In this document: positions 1,554-44,300 of the stretch, piece by piece
Position numbering within the stretch: the stretch's first letter is position 1
How the letters are laid out: each line of letters starts with the position of its first letter
Assembly: GCA_965153455.1 (NCBI GenBank)
Contig: OZ234493.1
Coordinates: 21,814,213-21,878,212 of the forward strand
Reading direction: 5' to 3'
DNA: 64,000 nt
Source: Sphagnum compactum
Lineage: Eukaryota
Position numbers and translations under genes: made by a program
The notes under the pieces: model-generated
The model's database searches: none
What the model was told of the DNA's origin: nothing
The model's input: the letters and a program-made list of their open reading frames with translations, nothing else

Positions 1554-2589
1554 TCAGCCCCATCGGTAGGTTTTTCCTTAGCAGGAATTAGGTGGGAATC
1601 TTAGGACATAAATCAATGCAAACTTTGAGGCAGTACTTCCTTCCAAATTCCAATTTCGGAGCATCCTTTTTCCGCTATACAAAAGTTAAATTCAGCACCG
1701 TTTCCCACTTGTCACTTCCTGGGAATTTGTAGGCTCTGCCAAGAGGGTCAGACATCATCTGAGGATGTGCGATCACTTGCATGTAGAAATTAGGAGCAGC
1801 TACACTAGTAATAGGGGCTGGTAATTCAAAATCAAGGAAATGTAACTTTAGATGCAAAGAATCTGGAAATAGCTTTACTTCATTACACTATCGCAGGTGA
1901 CATTTGATTATATCTTAGCATGCATGGAAAACAACCTTGTAGTGCTGCAGCAACGATGGAAAATTAACAATCAAAGAAAACCAGTAATTTGTGACATGCA
2001 ATATTTTTGACGCCTTTGAAGTATTGTCATCAATGTAGGATTAAAAGCCAACAACTTAGCAACATCGATCCAGAGTTGACAATTTTCAAAATATGGTTGG
2101 AGTTATCTTTGTGAATAATAGTTGGGAAAACTATTAGAAACAATGGCCTAATAGTCTGCAGTAGAAAAATAGTTATAATACCAGCTAGCCTCAGGTGGGC
2201 TGGAGTGAACCAGCAGCCACCAATGCACCAGTTGAGGATGAGCCCGTTCAGCCCGTTTTGCGGATGAACATCCTCCCTGCCCGTCGAGGTATTTTTTTTT
2301 CACCTCTTCTCTACCCCACCTACCTCCCCCCTCCTACCTCCTCCTACCTACCACCTACCTCCCCCCTCCTATCTACCACCTACCAACCCCACCCCCCCTC
2401 ACTCCATCGCAAGAGCTCGAGCTGTGGCTGTGGAGCTCGAGCTGTGCAACGGGAGCTGTGGAGCCGGGAGGGAGGTAGGAGCCGGGAGGTCGTGCAGCTA
2501 GAGCGGAGCGGGACCCACGCGCCCACGAAGAGGTCCACGAAGAGGTAAGATGCTTTGAGTTTTTTTTTCTGTTTTTTCTGTTTGTTTTG

Positions 2590-3565
2590 TTTGAAGAAGG
2601 CATCGCTGCCTTCTTCTTTTGTTTTTTGTAACGCAAGAAGGCGCAAAGAAGAAGGCGATGGCAAAGCTGCCGTCGCCTTCTTCTTGTTGTTTTGCTACGC
2701 TGCAGCGCAAGAAGGTGACGGCAGCGTTGCTACCATCGCCTTCTTTTTTTTTTCTTTGGCAGCGGAAGAGAAAAAAGAAGAAGGCAACGGCACTGCCGTC
2801 GCCTTCTTCTTCTTCCTCTTGTTTTGCTACAGCGCAGCAGAAGAAGGCGACGACAAAGCTACCGTCGCCTTCTTCTTGTTGTTTTGCAGCAACGCTGCCG
2901 TCGCCTTTTTTTTTTTTTTTTTTGGCAGCAGAAAAGAAAGAAGAAGAAGAAGGCGACGGCACTGCCGTCGCCTTCTTCTTTTTCCTCTTGTTTTGCTGCG
3001 CTGCAGCGCAACAGAAGAAGGCGACGTTGCTGCTGTCGCCTTCTTCTTTTTTTTGCAGCGCAAGAAGGCGCAAAGAAGAAGGCGACGACAAAGCTGCCGT
3101 CACCTTCTTCTTATTGTTTTGCTGAGTTGCAACGCAAGAAGGCGACGGCAGCGTTGCTACCGTCACCTTTTTTTTTTTTTTCTTTGGCAGCGGAAGAGAA
3201 AAAAGAAAAAGGCGACGGCACTGCCGTCGTCTTCTTCTTCTTCCTCTTGTTTTGCTGCACTGCAGCGCAGCTCCGCAGTAGGGAGAAGAAGGCGATGGCA
3301 GCTGCCGTCGCCTTCTTCGTGGAGCTGCACTGCAACGCAGCTCCACACTAGGCAGAAGAAGGCGACGGCAACTACCGTCGCCTTCTTCTTCTTTTGTTTT
3401 TTTTTTTTTTTTTCCACTTGTCGCATAGCTGTAACTTTGTATTGAAGAAGAAGAAGACGACAGCTGTCGCCACCTTCTTTGCATTGCTGCAAGCAAATGG
3501 CGAATTTGCCTTTCTTTTGTGGTGCTGCGAAGAAGGCGACAGCAGCAATGTCGTCACCTTCCTCT
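2590..3565. repeat. Array of short inverted repeats (AAGAAGGCGACGGCA / TGCCGTCGCCTTCTT)
   Basis: The motif and its reverse complement alternate many times, e.g. gaagaaggcgatggca-aagc-tgccgtcgccttcttc at ~2648-2683. Confidence 0.9.
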
Positions 3566-3661: not shown

Positions 3662-5210
3662 ATGGCCAAGGGAAGAAGATTGAGGAAGAGCGCTGGTGGG
3701 GAGCTGGAAATGAGGAAGGAAAATGGTACTGCGTCAGATGACGCAATTCTTCTGCCAAATGTTGTTGTGTCAGACGAGGCAATTCTTCTGCCAAATGTTG
3801 CTGTGTCAGACGAGGCAATTCTTCTGCCAAATGTTGCTGTGTTAGACGAGACAATTCTTCTGCCAAATGTTGTTGTGTCAGACGAAGCAGACGCCGAGCC
3901 ACACGTTGCTGCAACTACCGAGCAAAATATGGTTGCAGCAGATGAAACAGTTGGTGACCGAAGTATTGTTGCAATAGATGAGCGAATTGGTGCGCAAAAT
4001 GGTGCTCTATCATAATTGAAAGACAAGGATGACAGTTTGATATAGATTGTTTTAGAATTTGTGGACATTAGATTAAAGACAGATTAAAAAGATTGTACAA
4101 GTCTCTTCAAGTGTAATTATATCCGCACCTTCCATCATTTGTTGGAAGGTGTGGGATTTTTTTTATCAAAATTTTTCTATTGCAATACCTGAAAATAGTT
4201 CATGTTTATAGGAGTAGTATGTGATTAAGTGAGTTTATGTTTTGTAATACTTGCATTCTGTTTTTTGATCTTTCATTTTTTTGGTTAGGTCCGAAAGTTG
4301 AATCTGAGCAGGCTCCTTAGACACTTGCACTTCTTTGTCCACCTAATTTGGCTCGGAAGGACAAAGAATGGACGAAGGTTGGGTCGAAATGGAAGTGCAA
4401 AGTTGGCACTTGCACTGTCGCATATTGTGCCAAATGGTTGTTGACCCAGCATTTGAAGGAGGTGCATGGCTTGGTGGCAGAAAAGGCCAAACCTGGGAGG
4501 CCTTCAACTGCTGTAGGAGGTCCTTGACATCAAGACCATGCCAAAATGAATGCTCGCATCTTGGGAATTACAATGGTTGTGCAAAGGCAGAATGATCAAA
4601 ACGTGGCTAGTCGCGCTCGTGCCAAAGCACAACGCGAGTGGAAAAACCTGGTAGCTGTTGCAAAACAGTGTCAACCATTCCCAAAACCAGCTTTGGTTAA
4701 ATTAGCTTCAGAGTAATTGTTGAAGGTGTTGGGCCTCAATGCTTGGGGTGTGGGAAGTGTGCCTCGAGATGCAGCATCACGGATGGAGAAGGATGAAGAT
4801 TTACAAGGGATGATGCGATCCACCCGTTGTGTATATGCACGACAATTGAAGACGGCATGGGATGTAAAAAATTGGGATCGAGAGTCCAGTAAAACAAATC
4901 GGACAAAACAGTTGGCAGATGTTTTGGATTTTCATGAATCTAGAATGATTCATGGAAGGTAAGAAATAATAATAAGCAATGTTTATTATTTTTTTATTGC
5001 ATTTCATCCAAGGTGCATTAGGATTTAACTTGGTGGTTTTTGGGTGTTTATAGGGTTCAGGGCTAAGCACAGGAAGAGTTTGTTGCAACTGTAATTCAGG
5101 TTGAGATGCAACGCCGCCATTTTTACACTGCTCGTCATGCAGCAAAAGCTGCAAATGCAGCAACTGCATACTGAGCTAAACACGAGATTGTAGATACTGA
5201 TATGGGTTAA
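3662..5210 (+). pseudogene. MULE accessory gene: C2H2 zinc-finger protein (~384 aa, 3 exons), with in-frame stops
   Basis: Exons 3662-3989, 4289-4958 and 5054-5210 have GT/AG ends and total 1155 nt; CKVGTC-TVA-Y-CAKWL-L-TQ-H-LKEV-H fits C-x4-C-x3-Y-x5-L-x2-H-x4-H; followed by KAKPGRP; several stops at positions that are sense in other copies. Confidence 0.8.
3734..3886 (+). repeat. 36-bp coding tandem repeat (SDEAILLPNVVV) x~4
   Basis: tcaga(c/t)ga at 3734, 3770, 3806, 3842 and 3878. Confidence 0.9.
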
Positions 5211-5619: not shown

Positions 5620-5895
5620 AATATGTAATACCTGCATATAAGTCCCATAATAGTCGTTGGTTTATTTGGCATCTCTTGCAATACCCGCATATGGGCCACA
5701 AATAGTTGCTAACAGTCTTCATTCGTTGCAATACCCGCATATCGATCCATGGTATTCGCTTTGTTTTTATAACAATCCTTGCAATACCCGCATATAGTTT
5801 CCATAATAGTCGCTGGTTTTTTTTTTGCATCTCTTACAATACCCGCATATAGGTCCCATAATAGTTGCTGGTTTTTTTCATTCATTGCAAAACTT
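5620..5895 (+). repeat. ~51-bp tandem repeat with GCAATACCCGCATA core
   Basis: Core recurs about every 50-55 bp; longer array at 22769-23130, shorter at ~41830-42010. Confidence 0.8.
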
Positions 5896-8055: not shown

Positions 8056-10749
8056 TTATTCGTGACATCGTTTAGTACGTACATTTGTGTGATTGAGCAT
8101 TGTTTCATGCCAATCTTTGAGCCGTTTGACACTATTTCCCAATCCATCTTCTACACGGCGTAACACCAGTCCTGGGTGTGAAATTGCATTTGCCTTTGTG
8201 AGGTGTATGTTACGAATATTACATGGCAATACTCTCATGTGTGAGGTGGCATGTTCACAAAGTGTCACATCACCTTTTTTACATTCATTTGTGATCTCTT
8301 GCATTGTAGTGTCCAATTGTGCAAGAGCCTTTTCCATTGGGGTTAATGAATTTATTGTCTCATTAGACCCTACAATGGCACCCATAGGGAGATCATTTTG
8401 CTCCACGTTCATGAGCCCGTCAAATTCCATGATCCCATCATCACCTTCAAGATGATCATCTTCGTCATCATCATTGGCCTCCATATCATTTGGAATATGT
8501 GGCGGGTCTGCAAACATGTGACCCAACCCTCCACGATGTGATCCATACCATGTTCCACAGTAATGAATGATATCCTCTTGAGAAATGTCTGTGCATGTGA
8601 GAATGACATTAATTTGGTGTTTACACATGTTCCCTCGCAATGGCCATTCGCATGTGCAACAAAACATTTCGGTGAATGGGAATTTCACCGTGTAAATAAC
8701 ATTGGGAAGGCGTTGGCTCCGTACGGCCCAAGCTCCATCACTCTCAAGGGTTGGTTGGTACACATGGCTGAGTGGAATAAGGGCTGCCATTTCCACATTT
8801 CGTGTAATAATGGCCTCTATAACCTTGTTTTTTATGAAACCCATCTTTTTCATTTCCAATGTGTGCATGTAGTGTCGTGCAATGGTTGTTGTTAATCGCC
8901 ACACCAACCAGTCAATCCTACGCCTTCTAAGGCCTTTTGTGTCAAGAGCAAGCCAATGCTTCAATGCACCATGATATGATTCAATGCTCGCTTGGGTGTC
9001 TTGGTTGGAATGGGGCACTCTTCGAACACCCACCATCCATAATTCTACAAACATAAACACAATACATAAGGATGAATAACATTATACAAAATAATTTTGA
9101 ATGCTAAACCATGAAAAATATTATCACTTACCAAATTGATGGTAATAAGTCTAGAAATAGTTTGTCCACGCATCACCAGGCCTATGTTTATGAAGGCTTT
9201 CTCTCACAGCAACCCTCCCACGCTCTTTGAAGTCATTAATTGTTTCTCCATGATTGATGGACATGTACATCACATCATGAAGGTCTTGGAAGATTCCACC
9301 CCGCACTTCCACATCTTTGATTTTTTCAGTACCACGTAGGCGCCATGCTTTGAGAACATGCCAACAACAAAGGTAGATGGGAACCTTGTCCATACCCCAT
9401 ACGACCCTAATAAGGACACATATGCAATAAAATCTCATGAGTGGATGGGGTTAATAACCCATAAAATGCATTTGAAGTAATCAAGAATTTTATGAAAGAT
9501 ATTAAAAAACATTTAAGGAAATAAACACAAAGTCGATACTAAGTATAGAACTAACCGTAATGCCTTCAATTCTTGATGTGCATCATCAACGAGAAAACAT
9601 GATGGTTTCTAATGTGGCATGTGTGATAACATCTTCTCTTTTAGTGGCTTCAACCATTCGATCAAATCTTGAACTGTTTGCCTACTTGTAATGATCCAGG
9701 CTAAAGGGACACCCGTGCGATGATCATCAAACCCCATCAAGGTGAATAGATGGAATTTCATGTCATTTGTGCCAAATGTGGCATCCATAGAAATGGCACC
9801 ATTGTGACCATATGATAGCATGGACTTGCATTGAGTTGTGTTTGAATACCTATGGTGAATGGGACTTGAGTTCCGTTGATTTCACCAACATCTTGGAAAA
9901 AGAACACATCTTCTGGATGTTGGAGAGCCCAAGACCGAATTGAAATTGCAGGGTTAGTGTGTAAACGCCAACTCCCTTTCTTATGTTTCCGATCCAAATA
10001 TGCAATGTCTTGAAGCCGAATGAAATCATCTCGTGTCATGCTTTGACCCGCATTCACACGTTCCCACCAAATTGCTTTATGCTTGTCATATATTTGTTTA
10101 GTCGTGTAGCCTAAGCTTAGTTGGGCCCATATGTGGTCTTTCAATGCTTGTGACATGCGTGGAGCATAACGAGACATACGAAAAATGGACTCTAAGTCAT
10201 GCTCACCATGTGCGAATGACCCATCAATTCATGTATGGGCCTTATGATAAATTGTGATTTCAGCCACATCGGGTTGTGTGTATAGACGTTTGATTGAGAA
10301 TGACGCTAGGCATCCTCGTTTAATAGATCGAGTGTGGGTTGAATTTTCTCGATAGTCCTCTGGTCCATATCCGCATTGATACCTAAACCAAAAAACTTTC
10401 AAAACGTAAATGATTACATCTTTGGTATATGAATTATAGAAATTAAAAAGGTTAATGCCATAAATGTTTACCATGTATGCCCGAGGTGGTTTTTGATAGT
10501 TGGTTGCTTGACATCCGTTTGGCTTGGAAAGTTTTTGTAAACATTCCATTCCACAGGGGTGCTTGTATCCCCTCGTTCACCTTCCAAGAATTTCGAAATG
10601 CGAGCATATGGAACATAAGCAAATTGAATGGTCACTTTATTTTGCCCTCCATGGCATATCCCAGACGTCCACACCAAATCTTTGTTTGAGAAAGGGGACT
10701 TGGTGGGGTTTTGGACATGAATGGAATGGGACTTTGGAACCCTTCCCAT
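8056..10749 (-). pseudogene. MULE transposase with SWIM zinc finger (4 exons), disrupted
   Basis: Exons 10749-10472, 10382-9556, 9406-9132 and 9044-8056 are phase-compatible; motifs YQCGYGPEDYR, ISMDATF (D1), FLVDDA (D2), LCCWH (CxxH), IESYH (E), CTCEW...MCKH (SWIM); stops at 10229, 9609 and 9151 and a frameshift near 9838. Confidence 0.92.
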
Positions 10750-11067
10750 GATTAAAGGAAGTAGGACAAATTCCTGCACCAAGAGAATTTATAATTCTCT
10801 AAACATTCATCATTGAACAAAAACCCAAAATGCAATACATACATGGCTCCTTTAAAATCAATGTTGTGACTTGGAATTCCCATTACAACACCCATATCAT
10901 GATATAAAATACCTACTATTCCAATGTACATAACGTATAATACTTGCATTATGAACCCATATACTAAAACAAGTTTTGGCAATACCACATTGAGCTATTA
11001 AACTTCCCATCATTGAAAATGTTCACATATGCAATACCCGTATTGTACCTTAAACCCATAGTGTCTG

Positions 11068-13776: not shown

Positions 13777-14967
13777 AAAGTAAAATATTAGTTTTGAAAT
13801 ATATGAACCAAATTCCTATACATTAAATCATAAAGCATAACCCTACAAATCCAAATGATATTTTGCCATAAGCCTTATTACAACCCTAACTATACAAACC
13901 CTAACAAAAAAAAGATTTAGTGATATATGCCCTAAACCCAAAAAACTATACAAACTATACAAATCATATAATGCAAAATAAACAAATTTAAAAAAACATA
14001 GGAAAAAATTTAGAAACCAAAATTCAAAGGTTTTAAATTATAAATATTTATTAACTGAAAGAAAATATGTTAATCTTTAAAAATAATGAAATAAATTTCG
14101 TACAAAACCAAAAAAGAAAATATGTCTTTTACCTTTGTGTGATTTTTCCAACCTAAATTTTCCACTCTTTTTGAAGAAGGTATAAAATGCAATTGTATTA
14201 CTTCACATATGTGTAAACCTTAAAAATTTCCCCCCAAATTTAGCTTACTTTAAATTAATTACTATACATTTATGAAAAACTTATCAATTAATTTATGTGT
14301 CTCAACCCTAAACCTAATGGTTAAGTTAGTAGGGTATGTAATTAATAGAGTGGCTAGGTTAGTAGGGTAGGTGGTTAGTACAGTAGCTTGGTTAGTGGTG
14401 TGACCCAAAATGCAAGTATTGCATTTAGGGTATGATCTTCATATAAAGATGCTTAAACCCCACATGCGTACTTTCGAAATGGCCCAAAATGCAGGTATTG
14501 CAATTAGGGTAGGGTCTTTGTATAAAGAAAGCTTGAACCCCACATGCGTACTTTCGAAATGGCCCAAAATGCAAGTATTGCATTTAGGGTAAGGTTTTTA
14601 GGGTAGGGTATGTAATTGATAGGGTAGCTAGGTTAGTAGGGTAGGTGGTTAGTACAGTAGCTAGGTCAATAGGATAACTAGGTATTAGGGTAGCTGTGTC
14701 AGTAGGGGATAATAAATAAGGTACCAAGGTTGGTGCAGTACTTATGAAGGTAGAAAAGTGAGCAGGGTAGAAAAGTGAGCAAGGTAGCTATGTGTGAGGT
14801 CAGGTCCAGGGAAAAACGACCAAGAACCAAAAAAAAAAGTACAATGGTCAGTAGCAAAAAGAAATGGACTGTCATGAACCCCATCCGGCTCCGAATGAAA
14901 AAATGCAAGGCATCCAGTGGACAGAACGGCCAACTGGTGCATTGGTGGCTGCTGGTTCACTCTGGCC

Positions 14968-16698: not shown

Positions 16699-19600
16699 GG
16701 CCGGAGTGCCCCAGCCCCCATAACTGCACCAGTTCCGTTTGGGATGAACTTGAGTTCATCCCAATTATTGGATCTCCTGCAGGCATTGAGGTTGGGTCAC
16801 TTTTTCTTCTTTTTTCTCCCTCACTTACCTCAAGGCTACCCATAAAAAAAACTTATTTGGCTGCCCAAGCATTTCAAACCCCAACTACCTACCTGACTTT
16901 TGCATCTACTTACCTCCGCCACGTCAAAAACCCTAAACCTCGTCGCCACTCAAACCTTGCCGTTGTAGTTTATAGGAGGAGAGGAACATTGTTGTAGCTA
17001 GAACTTGAGCGTAGCCAAGATAGGAGCCAGAACTTGAGTGTGAATGTAGTCATTGTTTCAAGGAAAGGTCATTGTTGTAATTTGGTTTTGGAGCAAATGA
17101 GTTGTTAAATGATTAGGAACCAAGTGTTGCTACAACATAGCAACTTAATATTGCTACAACATTGGAGTGCAACAAAATGTTGCTACAAAATCAAAGTGCA
17201 AGGAAGATGGTGTTACAAAAGACAGTGCTAGAGCAATGCTTGAAAAAACGTTGCTAAAGACAGTGCAACAAAAGATGTTGCTGAAACGCTGTTATAAAAA
17301 ACATTGTTAAACTGTTGTTGCAGAAGATGCTACCCTAGAAAACAACCTCTGCATTTGTGGCAAGTAAATGTACAACAACCCTTTTTTTTTTCTTTTTTTT
17401 TCTTTCTGGTCTATGTCCCCTTGCAAAAAAGATGATTATGAGCGTTGCGTTCGACATCACCTTCTAGTCTTCTTATGAAACCAGGGCAGAAAACAATGAC
17501 AAGTGCAACATTCGTTGTCATCTTCTAGTCTTCTTATGAAACCAGGGCAAAAGATAAAGACAAATGTACTTCATCATCATTTTCTACATTTTTTTCTTGC
17601 ATTGCAGAAGATGACAATGAGTTGAAAGGTTCGTCATCATCTTCCGTTGGTTTATTTTGGGTTGTAAAAAATGACAACGAGCCTCATGGCTCGTCGTCGT
17701 CTCTTGGTTTTTTTCCTTGTTGTCTTATAGTAGTATATTTGGACTAGTATTTTGGAGTTTGCATTGAGGCATTTGATCCAAGGAAACATTCCTCTAAATT
17801 CACAATTAGTGCATGACTTTATTATGTAACGACAAGAAAATAAAATAATAATGGTTTCATTGACAAACAATTTGTGAATGCCAAATGTCTTCTGCAAGAA
17901 ATCAAGGAAGTGGGAAGTAGGTAAGGAAGTTAAAAATGAAAACATTCTAAAAATGTGATCCATGAGGAGAGAGTTTGGTAGCTTACTATAGTGATGTTCC
18001 TTCAGCCTAGACCCCATTGCTGCTTGCTTTTGGATTAGAGCTGGAAAGAAGGACCACCCCTTGTCTCTATGTGTGTGGGCATTAAGGAGCAGCCAACCAA
18101 GTGTTTTATATTTACAAAAGATGATGACGAACCTCCCGGCTCGTCTTTTGTGTTTTCTTCTTCAATTACAGAAGACAACGACAAGCCAAAAGGCTCATCG
18201 TCGTCTTGTGGTTTTTTTTTTGGGTTGTAGAAAATGATGACAAGCCTCCTGGCTCATTGTCATCTTATGGGTTTTTTTCTTGGGTTAAAAAAGACGACGA
18301 CAAGCCTCCCAATTCATTATCACCTTGTGGTTTTTTTTCTTTGGGTTGCAAAAGATGATGACAAATTACAAAGCTCATCATCGACTTGTTTTTCTTGAGT
18401 TGCACAAGACGACCAGGAGCCTCTCGGCTCATCGTTGTTTTGTGCTAATTTTTCTTCAATGGCAAAAAACGATAACGAACCGGGAGCTCATTGTCATCTT
18501 GTGGTTTTTTTTCTTGGGTTGCAAAAGATGACAACAAGCTAGGAAGTTGCTCATCATCTTCTGCTTATTTTTTTGAGTTGCACAAGATGATGACAAGCCT
18601 CTCGACTCATCATCTTGTGCTAGTTTTTCTTAGGTTGCAAAAAATGATGATGAGCCGAGAAGTTCATCATTGTTTAGTGCATTTTTTTCGTTGTTACACA
18701 CAAAGGCGCCACATGTCATGCCCAAGAATTAATGTAATTATTATTTTTTTAAATTATTAAAAATAATAATATAAATGAATTAAATGTAGATAATTAGTCA
18801 ATATAACCAAATATTTATAATAAATATAAATGTAATAATTTAGTTTTATGATTATTATATTAATTAAATTGAATATAATGAAGAATATAAATACAATAAT
18901 TAGATTTTATAATTAGATTATATTAATTAATTTTAATCAAAAGTAATACTTCTAAATTGCAGGCATCTAAGCCTTGAAATATAATGAACAATATTTATTA
19001 TTATCAATAGTAGGAACATTTAATTTTGCAATTTTTCTTGCTACAAGTTGTTTTTCTATAAAAAAGTTGTAGCAGGTTGGAAAAAATAAGTTATTATTCA
19101 TTTTTATATGTTGTTTGTAATTGTTTGTTTAAGGGAGCTTGAAGTTCCTCAACAGTGGTGGCAATCATCACTATTGGGGAGATTCAAAGTTTTTTTTTTT
19201 TTGGATTGATTGTTGTTTAAAGATTTGAGTGCTTTTGTTGTAAGATGGCACGTCCCCGAAAAAAACTTCAACGCTAAGGAAAGGTGACTATTGATAATTA
19301 ACAACAAATGAATGTTGTAGCAAATGAGGCATAGTTATGACATTCTTGGTGCGAGAATGTTATGGAAGCCCAAATAAGCAAGAATTTTAACGAATTTTAT
19401 AGATCAACCACTGTAATTTGGTAAACATTCGCGGGTCAAGAATGTTTTGACAAGGTGCTAAATGAAGAATTTTAAAGAATTTTAATGTGCAAAATGAAGA
19501 ATGTCATCACTAGGAAATGAGGAAGAAAGTGAAGTGAAACAAAGAATTATCATCTATACTCCTATTTTTGATGGTAAACCCTAAACCCATTCCTATTCTT

Positions 19601-20675
19601 GAAAGTAATTTTTTTGTGATAGATGATATGTTTCACATGATAGGGTTTAAAAGAGTGTCATGTAACACATTGTGAATAAAAAATCCCAATCCAAACTATA
19701 AACCCCATCTTCGTTCTCTATTTGAAAATGGGGATGGAGTTTTTTTTTGCCCATTTTTTTCCAAGAAATATCCTCATCATTTTAAGGGTTTACTTGCTAG
19801 CCTATTTGTAATGCCCTCCTTGTATTAGGGTTTTCTTGTTAGTTTTTAATACTTTCATATTTTTAAAGTTCTTTTGTTGGTTTATTTGTAATACCTTCAT
19901 ATTTTGTAAGATTTTCTTACTAGTCTGTTTGCAATACCTTCATATTTTGTAAGGTTTTATTGCTCCCATATTTGCAATACTTTCATCAATCTCAAGGATT
20001 ATTTGCTGGTTTGATTTTAAATGTTGTTCTTGTAGGGGTTCTGGTGGCTTCACATGAAAGTGATCAAGTAGAAATACCAGCAAGTCATGCAATGGAAGAT
20101 GCAAATTGGGTTCACGAAGGGTCGAGGTGGAAATGCAAGATCAATGGATGCACCGACACTTATGTGGCTAAATGGTTGTTTTGTCAACATTTGGACAACA
20201 AACACAGGCTTCGCATGGAGGTAGGCAAATATGGTTGTTTTTCTATTCATGTTGGGGGACCAAAACAACAAAATCACCATGTTATGAATGTTTGAATTTT
20301 GAACAATCACATCCAAGGCAAAAACGAAATGAAAATAAGGCCTTTGATCGAATGGAGAAAAAAATGGAATCAAAGTGGGATGAACTCCAAGCCCAAGCCC
20401 AACAAATGGAACAGGTTAAATGGCCTTTGTTGGTATGTTTAGCCTCCAAGATCTTGTTGGGCATCATTGCGATTCCTGCATGAGGGGTGGAGTGCATGGG
20501 TGCACCTTGAAATGGATGAGAACCCTGTTAAGATAATTGAAAGAAGCAAAATTACCTATGTAAAGCCTTTAAAAGTTGCATGGGGTGCTCGGAATCAAAC
20601 ATTGGAGTCTAATAAGCGTAACTTAGCCCAAGAAATGGGTACAATTTCAAAATCACTCATGGGTGGTATATTTCC
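16699..20675. mobile_element. Left half of a sister MULE family (family B)
   Basis: GGCCGGAGTGCCCCAGCCCCCATAACTGCACCAGTT matches the family A TIR at 28/36 and starts exactly where host-block homology stops; same layout of ctacc tract, hairpin array (~17430-18700) and C2H2 gene. Confidence 0.75.
20036..20675 (+). pseudogene. Family B C2H2 zinc-finger accessory gene, main exon, disrupted
   Basis: WVHEGSRWKCKINGCTDTYVAKWLFCQHLDNKH aligns to WTKVGSKWKCKVGTCIVAYCAKWLLTKHLKEVH; downstream LASKILL/LKVAW match LASEQLL/LKTAW; frameshifts and stops. Confidence 0.75.
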
Positions 20676-21094
20676 TGACGCGCTCCCAAGTTCCTAGTTA
20701 AACCCAAAATGGGTCTAAGTTACTCAAATAGCGGAATTGTGAGGAACTCGGGGCACACTCCCAGCTCTCAACACTAAAAGGGGTAGAGGGGCGTGCTGAA
20801 GCTCCGGGATGGGACTAAAAAGAGTGACAAGCTTTTAATTACTCATTCGCATCTGCATCGAACCAACCAACAAGTTGGTTAGATCACTTTCTGGAGCACT
20901 TTTAGTGCTAGGACAAGCCACGGGCAACTCTGGACTCACAAGACTCACCACGGCCCGAACTCGAGGGAAGCCACCACCTTCCCCCATATAGTATTCTCTG
21001 CACCTCTCCGCGGCACCTACATCCGAATGGCTTTTTGTCCCGAGACTCCCAAGGAGGAATCCCGAAACTGTCTCGGTTTGGACTCCCGCAACTT
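20676..21094. mobile_element. Truncated LTR-like repeat fragment
   Basis: Abrupt GC-richer insert starting TG (tgacgcgctcccaag) that interrupts the family B exon; resembles an abundant moss LTR end from memory; no second end or TSD. Confidence 0.5.
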
Positions 21095-21106
21095 TACCCG
21101 CAACTT

Positions 21107-22354
21107 ATGTTGTTGCATCAGATCAAGAAATTGGTGAGCAAAATGGTGCTCTATCATAATTGAAACACAAGAATAACAGTTTGGTATAGATTGTTTTAGA
21201 ATTTATGGACATCAGATTAAATAAAGATTCAAAAAATTATACAAATTTCTTGAAGTTTAATTATATCCGCACCTTCCATCATTTGTTGGAAGGAGTGGGA
21301 TTTTTTTTATCAAATTTTTTTTATTGCAATACCTAAAAACAATTCATGTTTATAGGAGTAGTATGTGATTGTGTGATTTTATGTTTTGTAATACCTACGT
21401 TCTGTTTTTTGAACTCTCATTTTTTGGTTTAGGTCCAGAACTTAAAACTGACCAGGCTTCTCAGCCACTTGCACTTCTTTGTCGACCTAATTTGGTTCAG
21501 AAGGACAAAGAATGGACGAAGGTTGGGTCGAAATGGAAGTGCAAAGTTGACACTTGCATTGTCGCATATTGTGCCAAATGGTTGTTGACCAAACATTTGA
21601 AGGAGGTGCATGGCTTGGTGGTAGAAAAGGCCAAACCTGGGAGGCCTTTAACTTCTGCAGGAGGTCCTCGACATCAAGACCATGCCAAAATGAATGCTCG
21701 CATCTTAAGAAATGCCATGGCTGTGCAAAGGCGGAATGATCAAAAAGTTGCTAGTCACGTTCGTGCCAAAGCACAACGCGAGTGGAATCACCTGGTAGCT
21801 ATTGCAAAACAGTGTCCACCACTCCCAAAACCAGTTTTGGTCAAATTAGCTTCAGAGCAATTGTTGAAGGTGTTGGGCCTCAATGCCTTGGGCATGGGCA
21901 GTGTGCCTCGAGATGTAACATCACGGATGGAGAAGGATGAAGATTTATAAAGGATGATTCGATCCACCCGTTGTGTATATGCACGACAATTGAAGACGGC
22001 ATGGGATGTCAAAAATTGGGATCAAGAGTCCAGTAAAACAAGTCGGACAAAACAGTTGGCAGATGTTTTAGATTTTCATGAATCTAGAATGATTCATGGA
22101 AGGTAAGAAACAATAATAAGCAATGTTTAATGTTTTTTTATTGTATTTCATCGAAGGTGTGTTACGGTTTAATTTGGTGTTTTTTTGGTGTTTATAGGGT
22201 TTAGGACAAAACAAAGGAAGAGTTTGTTGCAAATGCAGTTCAAGTTGAGATGCAACGCCGCCATTTTTACATTGTTCATCATGCAGCAAAAGCTGCAAAT
22301 GCAGCAGCTGCATACCGAGCTAAACACAGGATTGTAGATATTGATATGGGTTAG
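21107..22354 (+). pseudogene. C2H2 zinc-finger accessory gene, 5'-truncated copy
   Basis: Exons 21433-22102 (670 nt) and 22198-22354 (157 nt) are the same lengths as in copy 1; ORF 21369-21950 carries the finger; stop at 21948. Confidence 0.82.
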
Positions 22355-25300: not shown

Positions 25301-28300
25301 CATTTGGCTTAACTTTATTTACTTGGATAATAAAAAGTTGGATCTAAAAATCAGATTGATTAATTTGATATTTGATTGATTAACTTAAGTATATTTTTGT
25401 TTTAATAAGTGATTGAAATCACTATTTAAGATAATTATTCCATGTTATAGATTGCAAGTTCAACTTTTTCATGAAAAATTCGTACACCAAGATAAGCTTG
25501 ATCACAATTGTCATTGTACTATTTGTTCCACAAACAATACAACTTTTTTTCAAATTCATGAAACAAAGTAAGAATCATGGAACTCCTAATCAACAACCCC
25601 AACCTCTATACACACCTTTGTTAGCATATTATTTTGAAATTAATCAATTACTTTGGAGTGACCCAAAATGTAGGTATTACATTTAGGGTAGGATCTTCAT
25701 TTAAAAAGGCTTAAACCCCACATGCATACTTTCAGAGTGACCCAAAATGCAGGTATTACATTTAGGGCAAGATCTTCATATAGAGAGGCTTAAACCCCAC
25801 ATGGGTACTTTCGAAATGACCCAAAAAGCAGGTATTGCATTTAGGGCAGGATCTTCGTATAGAGAGGCTTAAACCCCACATGCGTACTTTCGGAGTGACC
25901 CAAAATGCAGGTATTGCATTTAGGGTAGGATCTTCGTATAGAGAGGCTTAAACCCCACATGCGTACTTTCGGAATGACCCCAAATGCAGGTATTGCATTT
26001 AGGGTAGGGTTATATCAAAGTGACTCTGCATGTGCATATTGTGTTTAGGGCTAGGTCTTCACTTAAGGGTATCCAAACCATTTAGATGGGTTTTTTTGAA
26101 ACGTGGGTATTGCATTTAAGCTTGTTATTTCATTTAAACTTGCAATACCCGAACTTATACTTACCTTTACTAATTGGATTTTTGGGGTTTCATTGCAATA
26201 CCTACATTCGTACTTACTTTTACCAACTGGAATTTTGGGGCATAATTGCAATACTTGCACTTGTACTTACTTTTACCAATAAGGATTTTGGGGCCTAGTT
26301 ACAATACCTACATTTAACATTAATATTATCATTATCCTTGTGTTTTTGCATTTCACACTTTTTGTGCTTATTACTTGGAAACAATAATAACCTTTGTGCC
26401 ATATTAGATTTCATGTGTGTGTTGAATACATGATGTTCAAGGAATTTGGGATATGGTTTCCTCCATATAGAATTGATTCTAAAACAAAATTCTTAGTGCC
26501 AATGGCACCAATCTTGATTAGTAATTGAAACATTTATTCATGACATCGTTTAGTATGTACATTTGTGTGATTGAGCATTGTTTCATGCCAATCTTTGAGC
26601 CGTTTGACATTATTTCCCAATCCATCTTCTACACGGCGTAACAACAATCCTGGGTGTGAAATGGCATTTGCCTTTATGAGGCGTATGTTACGAATATTAC
26701 ATGCCAATACTCTCATGTGTGAGGTGGCATGTTCACAAAGTGTCACATCGCCTTCTTTACATTCAATTGTGATCTCTTGCATTGTAGTGACCAATTGTGC
26801 AAGAGCCCTTTCCATCGGGGTTGATGAATTTATTATGTCATCAAACCCTACAATGGCACCCATAGGGAGATCATTTTGCTCCATGTTCATGAGCCCATCA
26901 AATTCCATGATCCCATCATCATCTTCAAGATGATCATCTTCGTCATCATCATTGGCCTCCATATCAGCTGGAATATGTTACGGGTCTGCAAACATGTGAC
27001 CCAACCCTCCACGATGTGATCCATACCATGTTCCATAGTAATGAATGATATCATCTTGAGAAATGTCTGTGCATGTGAGAATGACCACAATTTGGTGTTT
27101 ACACATGTTCCTTTGCAATGCCCATTCGCATGTGCAACAAAACATTTCTGTGAATGGGAATTTCACCGTGTAAATAACATTGGGAAGGCGTTGGCTCCGT
27201 ACGGCCCAAGCTCCATCACTCTCAAGGGTTGGTTGGTACACATGGGTGAGTGGAATAAAGGCTGCCTTTTCCACACTTCGTGTAATAATGGCCTCTATAA
27301 CCTTGTTTTTTATGAAACCCTTTTTTTTTCATTTCCAATGTGTGCATGTAGTGGCGTGCAATGGTTGTTATTAATTGCCACACCAACTAGTCAATCCTAC
27401 GCCCTTTAAGGCCTTTTGTGTCAAGAGCAAACCAACATTTCAATGCACCATGATATGATTCAATGCTGGCTTGGGTGTCTTGGTTGGAATGGGGCACTAT
27501 TCGAACACCCACCATCCATAATTCTACAAACATAAACACTATACATAAAGATGAATAACATTATACAAAATAATTTTGAATGTTAAACCATGATAAATAT
27601 TATCACTTACCAAACTGATGGTAATAAGTCGAGAAATAATTTATCCACGCATCACCAAACCTATATTTATGAAGGCTTTCTCTCACAGCAACCCTCCCAC
27701 GTTCTTTGAAGTCATCAATTGTTTCTCCATGATTGATGGACATGTACATCACATCATGAAGGTCTTGGAGGATTCCATCCCGCACTTCCACATCTTTGAT
27801 TTTTTCAGTACCACATAAGCACCATGCTTTGAGAAGATGCCAACAACAAAGGTAGATGGGAACCTTGTCCATACCCCATACGACCCTAGTAAGGACACAT
27901 ATGCAATAAAATCTCCATGAGTGGATGGGGTTAGTACAACATAAAATGCATTTGAAGTAATCAAGAATTTTATGAAAGATATTTAAAAACATTTAAGGAA
28001 ATAAACACAAAGTCGATACTAGGTATGGAACTAACTGTAATGCCTTAAAATCTTGAGGTGCATCATCAACGAGAAAACATGATGGTTTCCAATGTGGCAT
28101 GTGTGATAAAATCTTCTCTTTTAATGGTTTCAACCATTCGATCAAATCTTGAACTATTTGCCTACTCGTAATGATCCAGGCTAAAGGGACACCCGTGCGA
28201 TGATCATCAAACCCCATCAAGGTGAATAGATGGAATTTCATGTCATTTGTGCCAAATGTGGCATCCATAGAAATGGCACCATTGTGACCATATGATAGCA

Positions 28301-28488
28301 TGGACTCACATTGAGTTGGTGTTTGAATACCTATGATGAATGGGACTTGAGTCCCATTGATTGCACCAACATCTTAGAAAAAGAACACATCTTCCAAATG
28401 TTGGAGAGCCCAAGACCGAATTGAAATTGCAGGGTTGGTGTGTAAACGCCAACTCCCTTTCTTATGTTTCCGATCCAAATATGCAATG

Positions 28489-28625: not shown

Positions 28626-28641
28626 TAGTATGGCTCAGGGT

Positions 28642-38388: not shown

Positions 38389-41300
38389 GGCTGGAGTGAA
38401 CCAGCAGCCACCAATGCACCAATTGAAGATGAGGCCGTTCAAGCTGTTTTGCGGATAAACCAAAAACCCATCTTCTTCCCCTGCCCATGGATTTTTCAGC
38501 CCCCTTCTCTGCCCCAAAATCTTCCCCTCCTACCTACCTCCCCCCCTCTGGCATAACCCCCCCCCTCCTACCTCCCTCACCTCATTTCTTGTTCATTCCA
38601 TCTTGAGAGCTCAGTAGAGCTCGCAAGCTTCAGCCCCACGGAGTTTCGTGACACAGGGGTTGAAGAAGGCAGGAGCTCAACATTGCACGAATGTGGAGAG
38701 CTCAACGTTGAAAATGTTGAAGGAACGGGGAGAGGAGAAGGAAAGAGGAGCGCTTCAAAAGCAAAAGAAGAAGGTAAGGTCCCTCCCTAGAGTCTATGTC
38801 CCTTTTTTTTTTTTTTTGCTTTCTACTTGAGAAGAAAAAGACGCCATCGTCTTCTTCTTTCAAGTTTTTGTTGCCATTGCCTTCTTGTCTAGTAGTGTTG
38901 CAATGAAGAAGAAGAAGATGACAGCAATGCGCCATCGTCTTTTTCTGTGGAGGTGGTGTTGAAGAAAAGAAGAAGATGACAGTAACTACCGTCGCCTTCT
39001 TCTTCTTATGTGGCAAATTTTGCAAAGAAGAAGAAGATGGCGATGGCAGCTTGCTACCATTACCTTCTTCTCTAGTAGTGTTGCAATGAAGAAGAAGAAG
39101 ACGACGACAACGCGCCATCGTCTTCTTCTGTGGAGGTGGTGTTGAAGAAAAGAAGAAGGCGACGACAGCTGCCGTCACCTTCTTCTTCTTATGTGGCAAG
39201 TTTTGTAGAGATGAAAAAAAATGCGATGGCAACTACTGTTGCCTTCTTCTTTGGCTGTTGTTGTAGAGAAGAAGATGGCGACAGTAGCTACCGTCACCTT
39301 CTTCTTGGGGGGGTGTTGCAGAGAAGAAGGTGACGATAGTAGTTGTTATCGTCGCCTTCTTTTGGGCCAGTGTTGCAAAGAGAAGAAGGCGACGGCAATA
39401 GTTGCTGTTGTCGTAACTATTACCGCCGCCTTTTTCTGGGTGGGTTTTGTAGAGAGAAGAAGGCGATGGCAACAATTATTGTCGTTGCCATTTTCTAGGT
39501 AGGTGTTGCAAAAAAAAGAAGGCGACGGTAATAGCTTCTGCCCTCGCCTTCTTCTGGGCGGGTGTTACAGAGAGAAGAAGGCAATGGCAGCAGCTGCTAC
39601 CGTTGCCTTCTTTTGGGTGGGTGTTGGAGAGAAGAAGACTATGTTGCCTTCTTTTCTATGTTTGAAAAAATGAAGAAGATAATAGCTTCTATCACCCTTT
39701 TTGATGGCTTTGTTGCAAAAAAAAGCGACAACAATTGTCGTCACTTTTTTGGTGGTTTTGCTGCGAGGAAGGTGATAGCAACAATGTCGTTGCCTTCTTC
39801 TATGGTGGTGGTGTTGTGAAGAAGGCGATGGCAGTAAGTGGACGCTTTTTTTTTTTTTTCTTTGGTATTTTTGGTTTAGTTCATTAGAATTGACAATTAA
39901 CAATGAAATGGTGATTTTTTTAATGTTGAAGGTTGTAATGGCTAAAGGAAGGAGATTGAAGAAAGGTGGTGGTGATTTGAAAGCTCACAAGAAAAATGTT
40001 GTTTCATTAGAACAGATAATTAGGAAGCAAAATGTTCATCCATTACAAACGGGACTTGGGGAGCAAAATGTTGCTCCATCAGAATTGAGACCTGGGGAGC
40101 AAAATGTTGCTTCATTAGAATTGAGAATTGATAAATCAAGCAATGTATGTGGGTTAGAGTCCATAATGGTGATAGTTTGCAATTCAAATGGTGAGATCAC
40201 TTTCAATATAGATTGAAAATTTTGATCGAAAAAATGATGGGTTAGATTGTTTTAGAATTTACGTACATTAGATTAAATGCAGATGAAAGAAATTGTACAA
40301 GTTTTTTTAAGTTTAATTATATCCGCACCTTCCATCAAATGATGGAAGGTGTGGGATTTGTTTTATCAAAAAACATTTATTGCAATACTTGAAAATAATT
40401 AAAGTTTACAGGAGTTGTATTTAATTGTGTGATTTTATGTTTTGCAATACTTGCATTCTATTTTTTGAACTCTTTATGTATAAGGTTTTAAGGTTAAGAT
40501 TTTTTTATCACAAAGTAATGACTTTTTTATTATATTTTTTGGTTTAGGTTCAGAACTTGAAACCGACTAGGCCTCTTAGCCGCTGGCACCTCCTTGTCCA
40601 CCTAATATGGCTCGAAAGGACAAAGAATGGACGAAGGTTGGGTCGAAATGGAAGTTTAAAGTTGGCACTTGCATTGTTGCGTATTGTGCCAAATGGTTGT
40701 TGACCAAACATTTGAAAGAGGTGCATGGCTTAGTGGCAGAAAAGGCTAAACCTAAGAGGCCTTCAACTTCTGAAAGAGGTCTTCGACATCAAGACCATGT
40801 TAAAATGAATGCCCACATCTTGGGATATGCCATGGCCATGCAAAGGCGGAATGATCAAAAGGTTGCTAGTCACACTCGTGCCAAAGCATAGTGCGAATGG
40901 GATAAGCTGGTAATTGTTGCAGAACAATGTCCACCATTCCCAAAACCAGCTTTGGTCAAATTAGCTTCAGAGTAACTATTGCAAGTGTTGGGTCTTAATG
41001 CCTTGGGCATGCGAAGCGTGCCTCGAGATGCATCACAGATGGAAAAGGATGAAGATTTACAATAGATGATTCGATCCACCCATTGTGTATATGCACGACA
41101 ATTGAAGATGGCATGGGATGTCAAAAATTGGGATCGAGAATCCAATAAAACAAATTGGACAAAATAGTTAACAGATGTATTGGATTTCCATGAATGTAGA
41201 ATGATTCATGGAAGGTAAGAAAGAATAAGAATCAATGTTTATTGTTTTTTTATAATTTTGTTTCATCCAAGGTGCATTAGGGTTTAATTTGGTGGTTTTG

Positions 41301-44300
41301 GGTGTTTATAGGGTTCAAGAGACAATAAAAGAAGAGTTTGTTATAAATGTAGTTCAGGTGGAGATGCAACGCCGCCATCTATACACTGTTCGTCATGTAG
41401 CAAAGCTGCAAATGCAACAGTTGCTTACCGAACTAAACATGGGATTGTACATATTGATATGGTTTAGGGTTTCCATTTTATATAGTTAGCTAGGTTTTTT
41501 CAACCCTTTCTACCCAATTTTTGAACTTTGGTCCTTTGAGAGAGAACCTTTTTTTTATTGGGTTCTTTAACATTTTTTGATCCACCATATTTGTACATCT
41601 TTTATCAATATAATATTTTCTTCTAGTCACACTTGTTTGATGGGTATATGATTAATCATATTTTTTTTCTTTTTCATATTCTTTTAGTACTTTAAATGTA
41701 AGAATCAAAACTTAAATAGGCCCATTTGAATAGGTAACATTAATTTGTCTAGGGTTTACAAAGATCAAAATGAACATAATGCAATACCTACATCCTTTCT
41801 ATTATAATTTCCATAAGGCCATTTCAAATATGCAATAGCCGCATATAGGTCTCGTAATAGTTGCTGGATTTTTACATCCATTGCAATACCCACATAAAGG
41901 TTTTGTAATAGTTGCTGGTTTTTTTTTTACATCCATTGCAATACCCGCATGTAGGTCCATAAATAATTTTTGATTTTTAACATCTTTTGTAATATTTGCA
42001 TATAAGTTTCCATTGTAATATTTATGGGACTCATATGACATAATAATCTAATCGAAGTATCAACAAATAATGTCATAATTAAGGAGTTACTAGAATTTTT
42101 TTCAAATAATGTAAATGATTGATTATCATATTTGAACAATCATTTATTTCGTAATATTAATTAACTAATTATTTGGTTGAACCTTAATTATTCAAATAAT
42201 TAAAATTTAGATTGAAAAATTAAATTAATAATTTGATATTTAATTTATTATTTTAATTACATTTTTATGTTGATAAGTTATTCAAATCATTATTTTTGAT
42301 AATTATTCATGATAATTAATTGTCATAAAATTAATTTAGGTGTATAAAGAGACATATTTTGGGTACCCAAACCACTTATTTTAAAGTGACCTTACATGTG
42401 GGTATTGCATTTAAGGTTGATTATTCACCTAAGGTTGTCCAAATCACCTATGGATTATTTCAAAATGAGCTCGCATGCAAGTATTGCATATAAGCTTTGG
42501 TTTTCATTGAAAGCCACCCAAACTACATACTGGTTATTTCGAAATGACCCTACATGTGGGTATTGCATTTAAAGTTGGGTTTACACCTTAGGTTACCTAA
42601 ATCACCTAAAGGTTATATTGAACGAACTTGAATATGGGTATTGCATTTAAGGAAACAATTATTTATTACCATTTGGTACTATTTCCAAGTTAAGTTCTTT
42701 CACTTTCTTTAAAATAAAATAAAATGACATTTCATTGTTTTAATATGTTTAAGCCCTAAAAATTCCACCCAAAATGCACCCTAGATTTATTTTAACTATT
42801 TTAAACTTGGAAAAATAATGTTAATTGATTTATATGTCCTAAACTCTAAACCTAAACCATAATTCTAACATTAAATAGTATATTTCACATTAAACCCTAA
42901 CCCCCTATATCATCAATGTGTTCATTTTTATATATGTTAAATCATATTATAAGGTGAATAAATAATTTTGAAAACATGAATTTCATGATGTATTGGCGGG
43001 GAATCAAATATTTAAAAAATAGGATTATGTTTCATAGTTAATGAATTATCACAATATGATATGGGTATTACAATAAATAAAAGTGGGTTAAGAAATATTG
43101 AACTTTAACAACTATGGAACATATGGAAACAATGGAGATTCATAATTATGTTACATATTTAAACAAATGATAAAATGAAAAACCAATACAATGAACAAAG
43201 TCTAGAATATAAACCTTAAGCCTTGATATATATGAACCAAATTCCTAAACATTAAATTATAAAACATAACCCTAAATATCCAAATGATATTTTTCCATAA
43301 GCCCTGTTACAACCCTAACTATATGAACCCTAACAAAAAAAAATCCTAGTGATGTACACCCTAAACCCAAAAAATTATACAAAGTATATACATTATATAA
43401 TGCAAAACAAATAAATTTAAAAAAACATAGGAAAAATTTTAGAAACCAATTTTTAAATTTTTTAAACTACAAAGATTTACTCACCGGAAAAAAACCTTAA
43501 TCTTAAAAAATAATCAAATAAATTTTGTAAAAAACCAAAAGAAAAGACATGTTTCTTACCTTTGTGTGATTTCTCCAAATTATTTTTTTCCACTTTCTTT
43601 GAAAAAGATATAGAATGAAATTGTATTACTTCACATATAAACCTTAAAATTCCCCCCCCCAAATTTAGCCTAGTTTAAGTTAATTACTATAGATTTGTGA
43701 AAAACTTGTTAACTAATTTATGTGTCCCAACCTTAAACCTAAACCATAATCCAATAGTACATATTTATAATAATTACATGAAAAGATGTATTATAATGTC
43801 CATTCCATAAATAAATTCAGTAAATAAAATTTAATAAAATATGCATTAACTAAACTAAAATGGCTACAATTATGACATTATTTCCATTATAAATTATTTG
43901 TAATAACTACATATGGGGACCTATGTTCATCATCCATGAATTAGGGCAAACCTTAATAAATTGATAGGTAGGATTGGAGGGCTAGGGGTGGGAAAAGTGA
44001 GTAGGTAATTAGTTAGGTATTTAGCTATGTAAAAAACATAGATAGGTAGTTGAACATAATGGTAGGTGAACATAATGATAGGTAAGAAGGTGGGTGCATA
44101 GGTAGGTAAGTAGGTAGATAGGTCGGTAGTTGGGTTAGTAGGCAAGTTAATAAGTAAAAAGAAAGTTAAAGGAGCAAAGTAAATAGGTCGTTAGAGTAGG
44201 TAAACATGAAAGTACGCATGTTAATAGGTAGGAAGAAAGTTACACTAACAAGATAACTAGGTAGGTAAGCAAGTTAGTATGTAGAAAACAAATTACCTTA

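Follow-up and report, generated by a model that had tools for sequence, protein, structure and literature searches.

A convergent second gene encoding a predicted single-finger protein in Mutator-like elements of Sphagnum compactum

The accessory gene and its host elements

The analysed stretch of DNA, hereafter the window, is a 64,000-nucleotide segment of the Sphagnum compactum contig OZ234493.1 (positions 21,814,213 to 21,878,212 of the forward strand; assembly GCA_965153455.1). Its base composition and reading frames are typical of a repeat-rich eukaryote, and parts of it also occur in sequencing runs labelled 'moss metagenome' and 'plant metagenome'. It contains three copies (A1, A2 and A3) of one family of Mutator-like elements (MULEs), family A, together with the left part of an element of the related family B, and all four carry a second gene, here called the accessory gene. 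Such a gene had been proposed in an earlier, sequence-only reading of the window, and the tblastn search recovered its four homologs at the places named there. The gene limits were also exact, with ATG codons at 3662 and 39938 and stop codons ending at 5210, 22354 and 41467. With the main exon of A1 as the query (self-match at 4288-4959), the A2 copy was found at 21432-22103 (81% at the amino acid level, E 4e-122), the A3 copy at 40547-41215 (76%, E 4e-107) and the family B copy at 20077-20646 (30% over 206 amino acids, E 1e-20). All four copies are pseudogenes. The 36-bp repeat of A1 exon 1 lies at 3721-3889, and the sequence MARPRKKLQR* at 19245 is a possible start remnant of the family B gene. 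The accessory gene is read from the plus strand and the transposase from the minus strand, so that they converge, leaving 2.8 kb of tandem repeats between their 3' ends. The coordinates of all features are presented in Table 1.

The self-alignment and the end sequences showed that A1 spans positions 2198-14967. Its ends are inverted repeats of 36-38 bp starting GGCTGGAGTGAACC, and the core of these terminal inverted repeats (TIRs) occurs five times in the window, compared with 0.01 occurrences expected. A paralogous site not filled by A1 was detected near 45955-45967, where the sequences 1226-2191 and 14977-15852 are contiguous. Because a perfect 9-bp target-site duplication (TSD) borders the element on both sides and the flanks are contiguous at the empty paralogous site, the transposition of A1 is proven as directly as sequence alone permits. 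The TSDs of Mutator elements are 8-11 bp long, typically 9 bp.

The A1 transposase matched the Pfam family PF10551 (MULE) at about 9546-9794 with 34.9 bits (cut-off 27.6), and A2 retains the same domain. A SWIM zinc finger after the MULE catalytic domain is common, not universal; a weak match to it (PF04434, 12.6 bits, cut-off 19.6, E 0.1) was obtained for the open reading frame (ORF) 26981-27328 of A2, and a CxC...CxH pattern was seen in the read-through frame of the A1 transposase. The transposase ORFs of A1 and A2 gave no Pfam match to a FAR1/WRKY-type DNA-binding domain. A2 has lost its left end, its similarity to A1 starting at 21110 in the self-alignment; a Ty3/gypsy retrotransposon splits it at 28489-34563, and its right TIR lies near 37909. 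The 9-bp TSD pair of A3 carries one mismatch. No Pfam match to a transposase was obtained in the three minus-strand frames of 41500-44700, and A3, having no transposase domain, is a deletion derivative which retained the accessory gene. Of the family B element, only 4 kb at the left end is within the window. This part adjoins the 5'-truncated A2, with 400 bp of unrelated sequence in between (20700-21110). Because the outer flanks have no common TSD, the junction (16699-21110) is best taken as a rearrangement or a nested remnant, not as one chimeric transposition.

The accessory gene had been described as lying behind a left TIR and as transcribed toward the transposase. The first statement is correct for A1, A3 and, with a related TIR, for the family B element, but could not be extended to A2 with its lost left end. 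The second applies to A1 and A2, whose MULE domains are on the minus strand, but not to A3, which is without a transposase. The start codon is 1.46 kb from the TIR in A1 (TIR at 2198) and 1.55 kb in A3 (TIR at 38389), while the main exon of family B is 3.3 kb behind the B-type TIR at 16699. The B copy has a B-type TIR of its own in front of it; the accessory gene has therefore held this position since before the split of families A and B.

The copies outside the window were obtained from one metagenome scan, with at least 541 tblastn-confirmed stretches, of which 80 loci were returned, all belonging to family A. In 78 of the 80 loci the exon was flanked on one or both sides by sequence homologous to A1. 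A left TIR was present upstream and on the same strand in 22/80 loci, at a distance of 0.8-2.9 kb (median 2.0), and of the 20 loci whose upstream sequence exceeded 3 kb, 15 had it; the other five comprised one with a partial TIR, two without a TIR and two named L057 and L063, described below. The constant position within the TIRs, seen in the window as well as in these 22 loci, and the occurrence in two MULE families with related TIRs and about 40% protein identity support the earlier view of the element's own gene rather than a captured fragment.

Most of the contigs were too short to show a transposase, and only the one carrying locus L066 extends to it. Locus L042 is without exactly the transposase segment between two internal direct repeats. 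In A1, 79-bp tandem repeats flank the transposase region (7260-7522 and 13067-13251). Because L042 misses exactly the interval between them, recombination between the 79-bp repeats seems to yield transposase-less derivatives which keep the accessory gene. L057 (5735-7378) and L063 are one locus sampled twice, where an 873-bp gene piece (exon 2, intron 2 and part of exon 3) lies between 387-bp direct repeats, the neighbourhood being otherwise free of MULE sequence. This piece may have been captured or transduced into another element; gene fragments can thus travel, but this locus is the exception.

Between the left TIR and the accessory gene, A1 has an array of palindromic units, and a similar array is present in A3 at 38870-39640. 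These hairpin-forming arrays of family A are GC-rich (GAAGAAGGCGACGGC...GCCGTCGCCTTCTTC), and the array of family B (17400-18690) is of the same style with a different sequence. The arrays are putative promoters or could be a source of hairpin RNA.

Table 1. Positions of the Mutator-like elements, accessory genes and repeated motifs in the window
Feature	Position	Strand	Details
A1 left target-site duplication CCTCAGGTG	2189..2197		identical 9 bp at 14968-14976
A1 left TIR	2198..2235	+	inverted match to about 14930-14968, 36/38
A1 palindromic-unit array, GC-rich	2600..3400		between TIR and gene; self-inverted matches; tandem arrays of period 64-169
A1 accessory gene	3662-5210	+	three exons, about 385 codons as read
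A1 exon 1	3662..3989	+	109 codons; begins MAKGRRLRK, followed by a 36-bp (12-residue) acidic/hydrophobic repeat in 4.7 copies
A1 intron 1	3990-4288		GT...AG
A1 exon 2 (main exon)	4289..4958	+	223 codons, 3 in-frame stops; finger, GRPST linker, helical domain
A1 zinc-finger codons	4396..4467	+	C-x4-C-x12-H-x4-H
A1 K-P-G-R-P-S-T motif codons	4489..4509	+	
A1 intron 2	4959-5053		GT...AG
A1 exon 3	5054..5210	+	52 codons, 2 premature stops in A1
53-bp tandem array with the TTGCAATACC motif	5627..5876	+	downstream of the A1 accessory gene
A1 decayed MULE transposase (ORF pieces)	8059..10788	-	convergent with the accessory gene
A1 right TIR	14930..14967	-	TSD at 14968-14976 directly after
Family B left TIR	16699..16735	+	28/36 aligned positions identical to the family A TIR
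Family B accessory gene, main exon	20036..20697	+	2 internal stops
A2 accessory gene, 5'-truncated	21110..22354	+	exon 2 at 21433-22102 (1 stop), exon 3 at 22198-22354
A2 MULE transposase domain	27996..28373	-	PF10551, 34.7 bits (cut-off 27.6), E 2.5e-8
A3 element (6.4 kb)	38389..44787	+	both TIRs; TSD pair CTTCTATAG/CTTCTGTAG
A3 accessory gene	39938..41467	+	6 stops in exon 2
TGCAATACY sites	4181-7769, 13076-14574, 19930-19973, 21325-26247, 40381-42637		

The encoded protein and its relatives

The first exon starts with a basic segment resembling a nuclear targeting signal (MAKGRRLRK in A1, MGKRRRLRK in the annotated Sphagnum protein P0091), and the 12-residue acidic/hydrophobic repeats vary in number among the copies. 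The second exon encodes a finger of the pattern W-K-C-K-V-x-x-C-x-x-x-Y-x-x-K-W-L-L-x-x-H-L-x-x-x-H. The finger ligands are invariant in 13 proteins of families A and B and are kept in 27/32, 31/32, 32/34 and 33/35 of the aligned cluster representatives. When the family profile was compared with PDB sequences, TFIIIA (1tf3, E 3.5e-4) and GLI (2gli, E 1.5e-3) were matched, in the finger only. The Pfam model zf-C2H2 remained below its cut-off of 25.2 bits, the best scores being those of two divergent members (17.3 bits for P0174 and 16.5 for P0277), and it matched none of the family A or B proteins tested. Single C2H2 fingers often fall below this cut-off.

The structure was modelled with AlphaFold2 on an alignment of 50 sequences; a first model, based on 13 sequences, reached a predicted local distance difference test score (pLDDT) of 43 and was not used. 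The mean pLDDT was 73.8 and the predicted template modelling score (pTM) 0.34. The finger was modelled as a two-strand beta-hairpin followed by a helix (pLDDT 83-96), the 25 residues after it as extended (about 60), residues 101-144 as a single long helix of about 45 residues (82-96), and the remainder as three or four shorter helices (66-89). The mutual arrangement of these parts is not fixed because of the pTM of 0.34. A single classical C2H2 finger with the beta-beta-alpha fold is predicted with confidence, and together with the TFIIIA and GLI matches the model bears out the finger of the earlier proposal.

The top Foldseek rows were weak (best E 1.1), and several of them were C2H2 fingers; for the helical half Foldseek returned no match at E <= 0.001, and no new fold is claimed. 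Likewise, VIA-align against 48,161 chains gave no match to the helical half beyond a best Z of 5.8, with rows covering only the long helix (95-147), and no usable match for residues 95-241 was obtained in the Atlas search among named clusters.

The linker after the finger is extended and conserved, K-x-G-R-P-S-T ... G-P-R-x-Q-D-H-x-x-M-N. In 36 sequences its columns were occupied by K in 30, G in 14, R in 17 (C in 9, H in 7), P in 29, S in 27 and T in 28. Cys and His are typical CpG-decay products of Arg codons, and many of the departures from G and R are the expected products of G>A or C>T decay. The sequence-only reading regarded this motif as AT-hook-like. This claim fared poorly: the linker has the form K-[PS]-G-R-P-S-T, without an Arg before the Gly, and does not reach the canonical core R-G-R-P, and no AT-hook family was matched at E <= 1 in the Pfam search of ten family members. 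A looser hook with a GRP core is conceivable.

The word-indexed search found 468 relatives with the A copy as the query and 39 with the B copy, the latter with 45-80% identity. HMMER against 1.84 billion cluster representatives (50% identity) gave 572 clusters at E <= 1e-3, of which 237 were at E <= 1e-10. Among the 150 clusters listed, 40 were A-like, 31 were B-like and 79 were less than 60% identical to both; some representatives are only 23-30% identical, yet have the same motifs. Families A and B themselves have common finger ligands and several common motifs. The best named relative of the A copy is an 'unnamed protein product [Sphagnum balticum]', and most of the others are metagenome records. 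Among the 120 relatives of A listed, and among the relatives of B and the clusters listed, none had a functional name or a Pfam domain. One Atlas row (0.86) points to green algae and is regarded only as a lead. No form longer than 338 amino acids, and no fused form, was found, which is weak evidence.

No Pfam family was matched at or above its cut-off by ten family members (search at E <= 1) or by the window ORF pieces; the protein is therefore not a PMD, ULP1 (Peptidase_C48) or DUF-type accessory domain. Among the papers listed on Sphagnum transposons and on second ORFs of Mutator-like elements, no title or abstract described this protein. The species table of PMC12973397 lists six Sphagnum genomes, and its cluster tables with numeric identifiers may contain Sphagnum MULE clusters. 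The earlier proposal had named ordinary host genes as best hits, together with neutral evolution inside the elements, as the outcome that would speak against it; no ordinary host gene was found among the matches listed.

Decay, selection, transcription and surrounding repeats

The selection analysis covered 83 main-exon copies and included a comparison of variant-frequency classes. The majority sequence of these copies is stop-free. C>T and G>A account for 2482 of the 4377 differences from it (57%), and only 5/83 copies have a frameshift, the decay being by point mutation and not by insertions or deletions. The decay signature fits the methylation-driven deamination of silenced copies.

In 3403 pairwise comparisons the ratio of nonsynonymous to synonymous differences per site (pN/pS) was 0.43 for the true frame, compared with 0.52-0.81 for the remaining five. 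With stops counted as nonsynonymous, the number of nonsynonymous variants per synonymous one fell from 3.27 for singletons to 1.48 for variants present in at least 10 copies (Fisher p 3.6e-4). Between A1 and A2 the nonsynonymous and synonymous divergences (dN and dS) were 0.080 and 0.079, a ratio of about 1.0, while either copy compared with A3 gave about 0.35; between families A and B, pN was 0.46 and pS 0.85, with synonymous sites near saturation. Evolution is therefore non-neutral between the subfamilies but close to neutral between the two closest copies. This pattern, neutral among close copies and constrained among distant ones, fits constraint on the propagating lineages and decay after insertion. 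Taken together, the sequence comparisons argue with moderate strength for past selection on the accessory gene.

The introns had been regarded as conserved, and three observations agree with this. The four splice dinucleotides GT/AG are kept in 91-99% of copies (the GT donor of intron 1 at 3990 in 60/61, the AG acceptor of exon 3 in 68/75), compared with a mean of 72% for 154 control dinucleotides; the upper decile of the controls reaches 97%, and the retention is suggestive only. After GT-AG splicing, the frame of exon 3 is open for 52 codons to a common stop in 32/59 copies. Moreover, P0091 joins exons 1 and 2 at the position of intron 1. Because the donor GTAAG gives a stop, unspliced RNA would end the protein at ...IHGR, and metagenome ORFs likewise terminate there.

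The RNA-seq sample consisted of one polyA run, 12% of which was read. It contained 36 reads at >=85% likeness, and because only two of them reach >=95%, the reads come from sister copies. They are concentrated on exon 3 and the 3' end, with none on exon 1. In all 36 the first mate is on the minus strand, which fits weak strand-specific expression, the RNA being plus-strand provided that the library was stranded in the usual way.

The Ty3/gypsy insertion, which sits inside the A2 transposase, is an element of the chromovirus type with long terminal repeats of 267 bp (99.6% identical), a 5-bp TSD (CAATG), open gag (254 amino acids) and pol (936 amino acids) frames and pieces of an integrase and a chromodomain; it looks recent. 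All MULE copies lie within copies of another repeat, called X (840-2191, 14977-16698, 37906-38389 and 44788-47244), which includes tandem units of about 150 bp (1226-1554, 38203-38389 and 44788-45331). The right TIR of A2 is about 480 bp from the left TIR of A3, and locus L028 has a similar neighbourhood of a right and a left end. This setting suggests either a preferred target or a nest of repeats.

Further to the right there are two 3.5-kb copies of an unnamed repeat, 80% identical (52447-55914 and 58205-61684), with long plus-strand ORFs of 572 amino acids at 54520-56235 and 382 amino acids at 60315-61460, which gave no Pfam match at E <= 0.01. The 284-residue ORF 47896-48747 spans a 168-bp tandem duplication (48162-48610, 95% identical) and is probably repeat-derived; its Pfam rows, e.g., the HCV NS3 protease, are spurious because they are below the cut-off or have no matched stretch.

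Possible roles and comparison with known systems

The best explanation of the whole, to which we assign a probability of roughly 0.7, is that a lineage of Mutator-like transposons in Sphagnum carries this as its second gene, which encodes a protein with the layout of a DNA-binding factor. For one part of it, namely that the accessory gene is borne by the element and represents a new family, the probability is very high. That the product is a nuclear DNA-binding factor acting on element copies, as its layout may suggest, is put forward tentatively, at somewhat less than even odds.

Candidate targets of such a protein are present in the elements. The motif TTGCAATACY occurs 22 times in the window (0.53 expected), and the shorter TGCAATACY has 50 sites on both strands, all within MULE copies, which make up 53% of the window; the three A copies are not independent counts for this enrichment. 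Most of the sites belong to 53-bp and 79-bp tandem arrays, located to both sides of the transposase and also in intron 1. The motif is common to families A and B, with two sites just upstream of the B exon. Moreover, CCTACC-type subterminal repeats lie just inside both element ends in inverted orientation. The TGCAATACY arrays and the subterminal repeats could, purely by inference, be binding sites of the element protein. Autonomous copies would then produce a nuclear, sequence-specific protein acting in trans on element DNA, which would read these repeated motifs. Once bound, it might help to recruit or position the transposase, like TNPA of En/Spm or the Myb-like protein of PIF/Harbinger; alternatively, it might, like VANC, sustain transcription of the element. 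Between the helper and the anti-silencing role the data give no preference. The interpretation in the sequence-only reading, an independent accessory or anti-silencing factor, is borne out in part.

Several observations weigh against the interpretation as a functional second gene with a DNA-binding product. In family A, exon 2 had a nucleotide diversity (pi) of 0.126, compared with 0.123 for intron 1 and 0.088 for intron 2, and the 3' flank was likewise less diverse than exon 2, although the higher G+C content and faster decay of the exons confound this comparison. The variability of codon position 3 exceeded that of positions 1 and 2 by a factor of only 1.2-1.4, and for transitions alone the frequency-class ratio changed weakly, from 1.74 to 1.29. 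Seven stop-creating variants are common to at least 10 copies, so that elements with a broken gene kept spreading or the sites were hit repeatedly. Only 7/83 main exons are stop-free (five of full length), and no sampled locus was shown to be intact across all three exons. At the RNA level the conserved introns did not hold up: intron 2 is covered at a depth like that of its flanks, and no GT-AG joint was seen in the 36 reads of the polyA run or in three metatranscriptome contig sets, the contigs of which span exons and introns alike and may include DNA. The TGCAATACY core was no better conserved than its surroundings in 64 copies (pi 0.112 and 0.122, p 0.72). Finally, the transposase may have its own DNA-binding part, and a recruiting role would then be less necessary.

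Some of these points bear on the possibility of a host gene captured as in Pack-MULEs, which would have no role in the element and whose constraint would be inherited from the host parent. Pack-MULEs are non-autonomous and carry pieces of host genes still present elsewhere. The family A exons are indeed no better conserved than the introns, the L057/L063 piece sits in another context, and MULEs often pick up host fragments, as stated in PMC6446971. However, the gene is whole, with its own start, three exons and stop; it has one and the same position in two element families which, in the window, cannot otherwise be aligned at the DNA level; it co-occurs with the transposase in A1 and A2; and no parent of the host type is present among the relatives listed (468 and 39 relatives, 572 clusters). 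We therefore consider capture improbable. A chance open frame in repeated DNA might be suspected from the stops in all window copies and from the lack of spliced reads, but this is extremely improbable: the A and B proteins are similar at E 1e-20 with no detected DNA similarity, the zinc ligands are kept, the majority sequence is stop-free, the true frame has the lowest pN/pS of the six, and exon 3 is open in 32/59 copies.

A more specific alternative is VANC-like anti-silencing, in which the protein would bind motifs of its own family and cause loss of methylation and transcriptional reactivation. An element-borne, lineage-specific, fast-diverging protein with a finger of the DNA-binding type, the availability of element-specific repeated motifs to read, and the strong C>T and G>A decay (2482/4377) expected of methylated targets would all suit it. 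According to PMC6446971 and PMC12973397, the VANC protein of VANDAL/Hiun MULEs counteracts silencing in a sequence-specific way and acts on its own family. Against this, no link to a VANC-type domain, which we take to have a Pfam entry, was found in the Pfam searches, the TGCAATACY core shows no extra conservation, and nearly all copies are dead and decayed, any such activity having given no protection; we regard this alternative as unlikely. The moss element resembles VANDAL21/Hiun of Arabidopsis, with VANC and VANB, in carrying extra fast-evolving ORFs. VANDAL elements have no long TIRs, whereas the moss elements have clear ones.

A cofactor like MURB would bind the transposase rather than specific DNA, and would be needed for reinsertion, not for excision. 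In maize MuDR, mudrB is convergent with the transposase gene. The moss gene has the same arrangement, on the strand opposite the transposase, and is likewise lineage-restricted with no assigned domain family; this is a likeness of layout, not of descent, and was established by description. Moreover, the long helix and helical bundle of the model could offer a protein-binding surface. PMC12973397 and PMC6446971 present MURB as an accessory protein required for new insertions which binds the transposase (MURA) at its N-terminus, and the former describes diverse accessory proteins and variable transposase ends in active MULEs. However, the conserved classical C2H2 finger of the moss protein points to nucleic-acid binding, and the transposase in the window is too decayed to represent a clean partner, so a MURB-like role is doubtful. 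The two systems also differ in that the moss gene starts 1.5 kb inside a short TIR of about 38 bp, not next to a long TIR as in MuDR, and the 3' ends of the moss genes are 2.8 kb apart.

TNPA of the CACTA element En/Spm and the Myb-like protein of PIF/Harbinger offer by analogy a possible working model. In this type of system, an element DNA-binding protein separate from the transposase reads subterminal repeats and brings in the transposase. The moss elements would resemble it in having the element-specific motif TGCAATACY repeated on both strands, and differ in superfamily and in the DNA-binding fold. Transposase-accessory interactions are cited for the CACTA and PIF/Harbinger superfamilies in PMC12973397. 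A bryophyte counterpart of VANC or TNPA, i.e., a transcription-factor-like transposon protein which reads the TGCAATACY arrays and keeps its MULE family transcribed or mobile, is a speculative extension with a low probability. The basic start would serve in nuclear targeting, the acidic repeats in activation, the finger and GRP linker in DNA reading and the long helix in pairing. If so, many specificity groups (A, B and dozens of others) would have arisen as the protein diversified along with the TIRs, and element-specific self-recognition would have originated independently in an early land-plant lineage.

If the protein guides the transposase or counters silencing, it would represent a second independent system for transposon self-recognition, and the many diverged subfamilies with related TIRs would permit a test of protein-target co-evolution. 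Apart from this, the finding is a sound annotation, adding a new accessory-gene family to moss repeat libraries, and a warning that gene models like P0091 are transposon genes.

The finger resembles those of TFIIIA and GLI in its spacing, C-x4-C-x12-H-x4-H, and in the hydrophobic core F/W..C....C...Y....L..H....H, but it is a single finger and not part of an array. Mutator elements carry lineage-specific second genes, such as mudrB, vanB/vanC and mutB, few of which have a known activity, and to our knowledge all the studied cases are from flowering plants or fungi. A second ORF with a C2H2 finger is found in Spectre of arthropods and Mutyl of Yarrowia; according to PMC6446971, Mutyl has two ORFs with C2H2, the second of which, mutB, has a DNA-binding role. 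The hosts of these elements belong to other kingdoms, and the elements, compared by description only, gave no sign of homology, while the moss protein adds the conserved linker and a helical half of 140 residues. The published survey reports few active MULE clusters in mosses (PMC12973397). A MULE with a convergent accessory gene, even one bearing a C2H2 finger, is thus of an already known kind; the novelty lies in the protein family, in how abundant and diverse it is, and in the lineage of its hosts.

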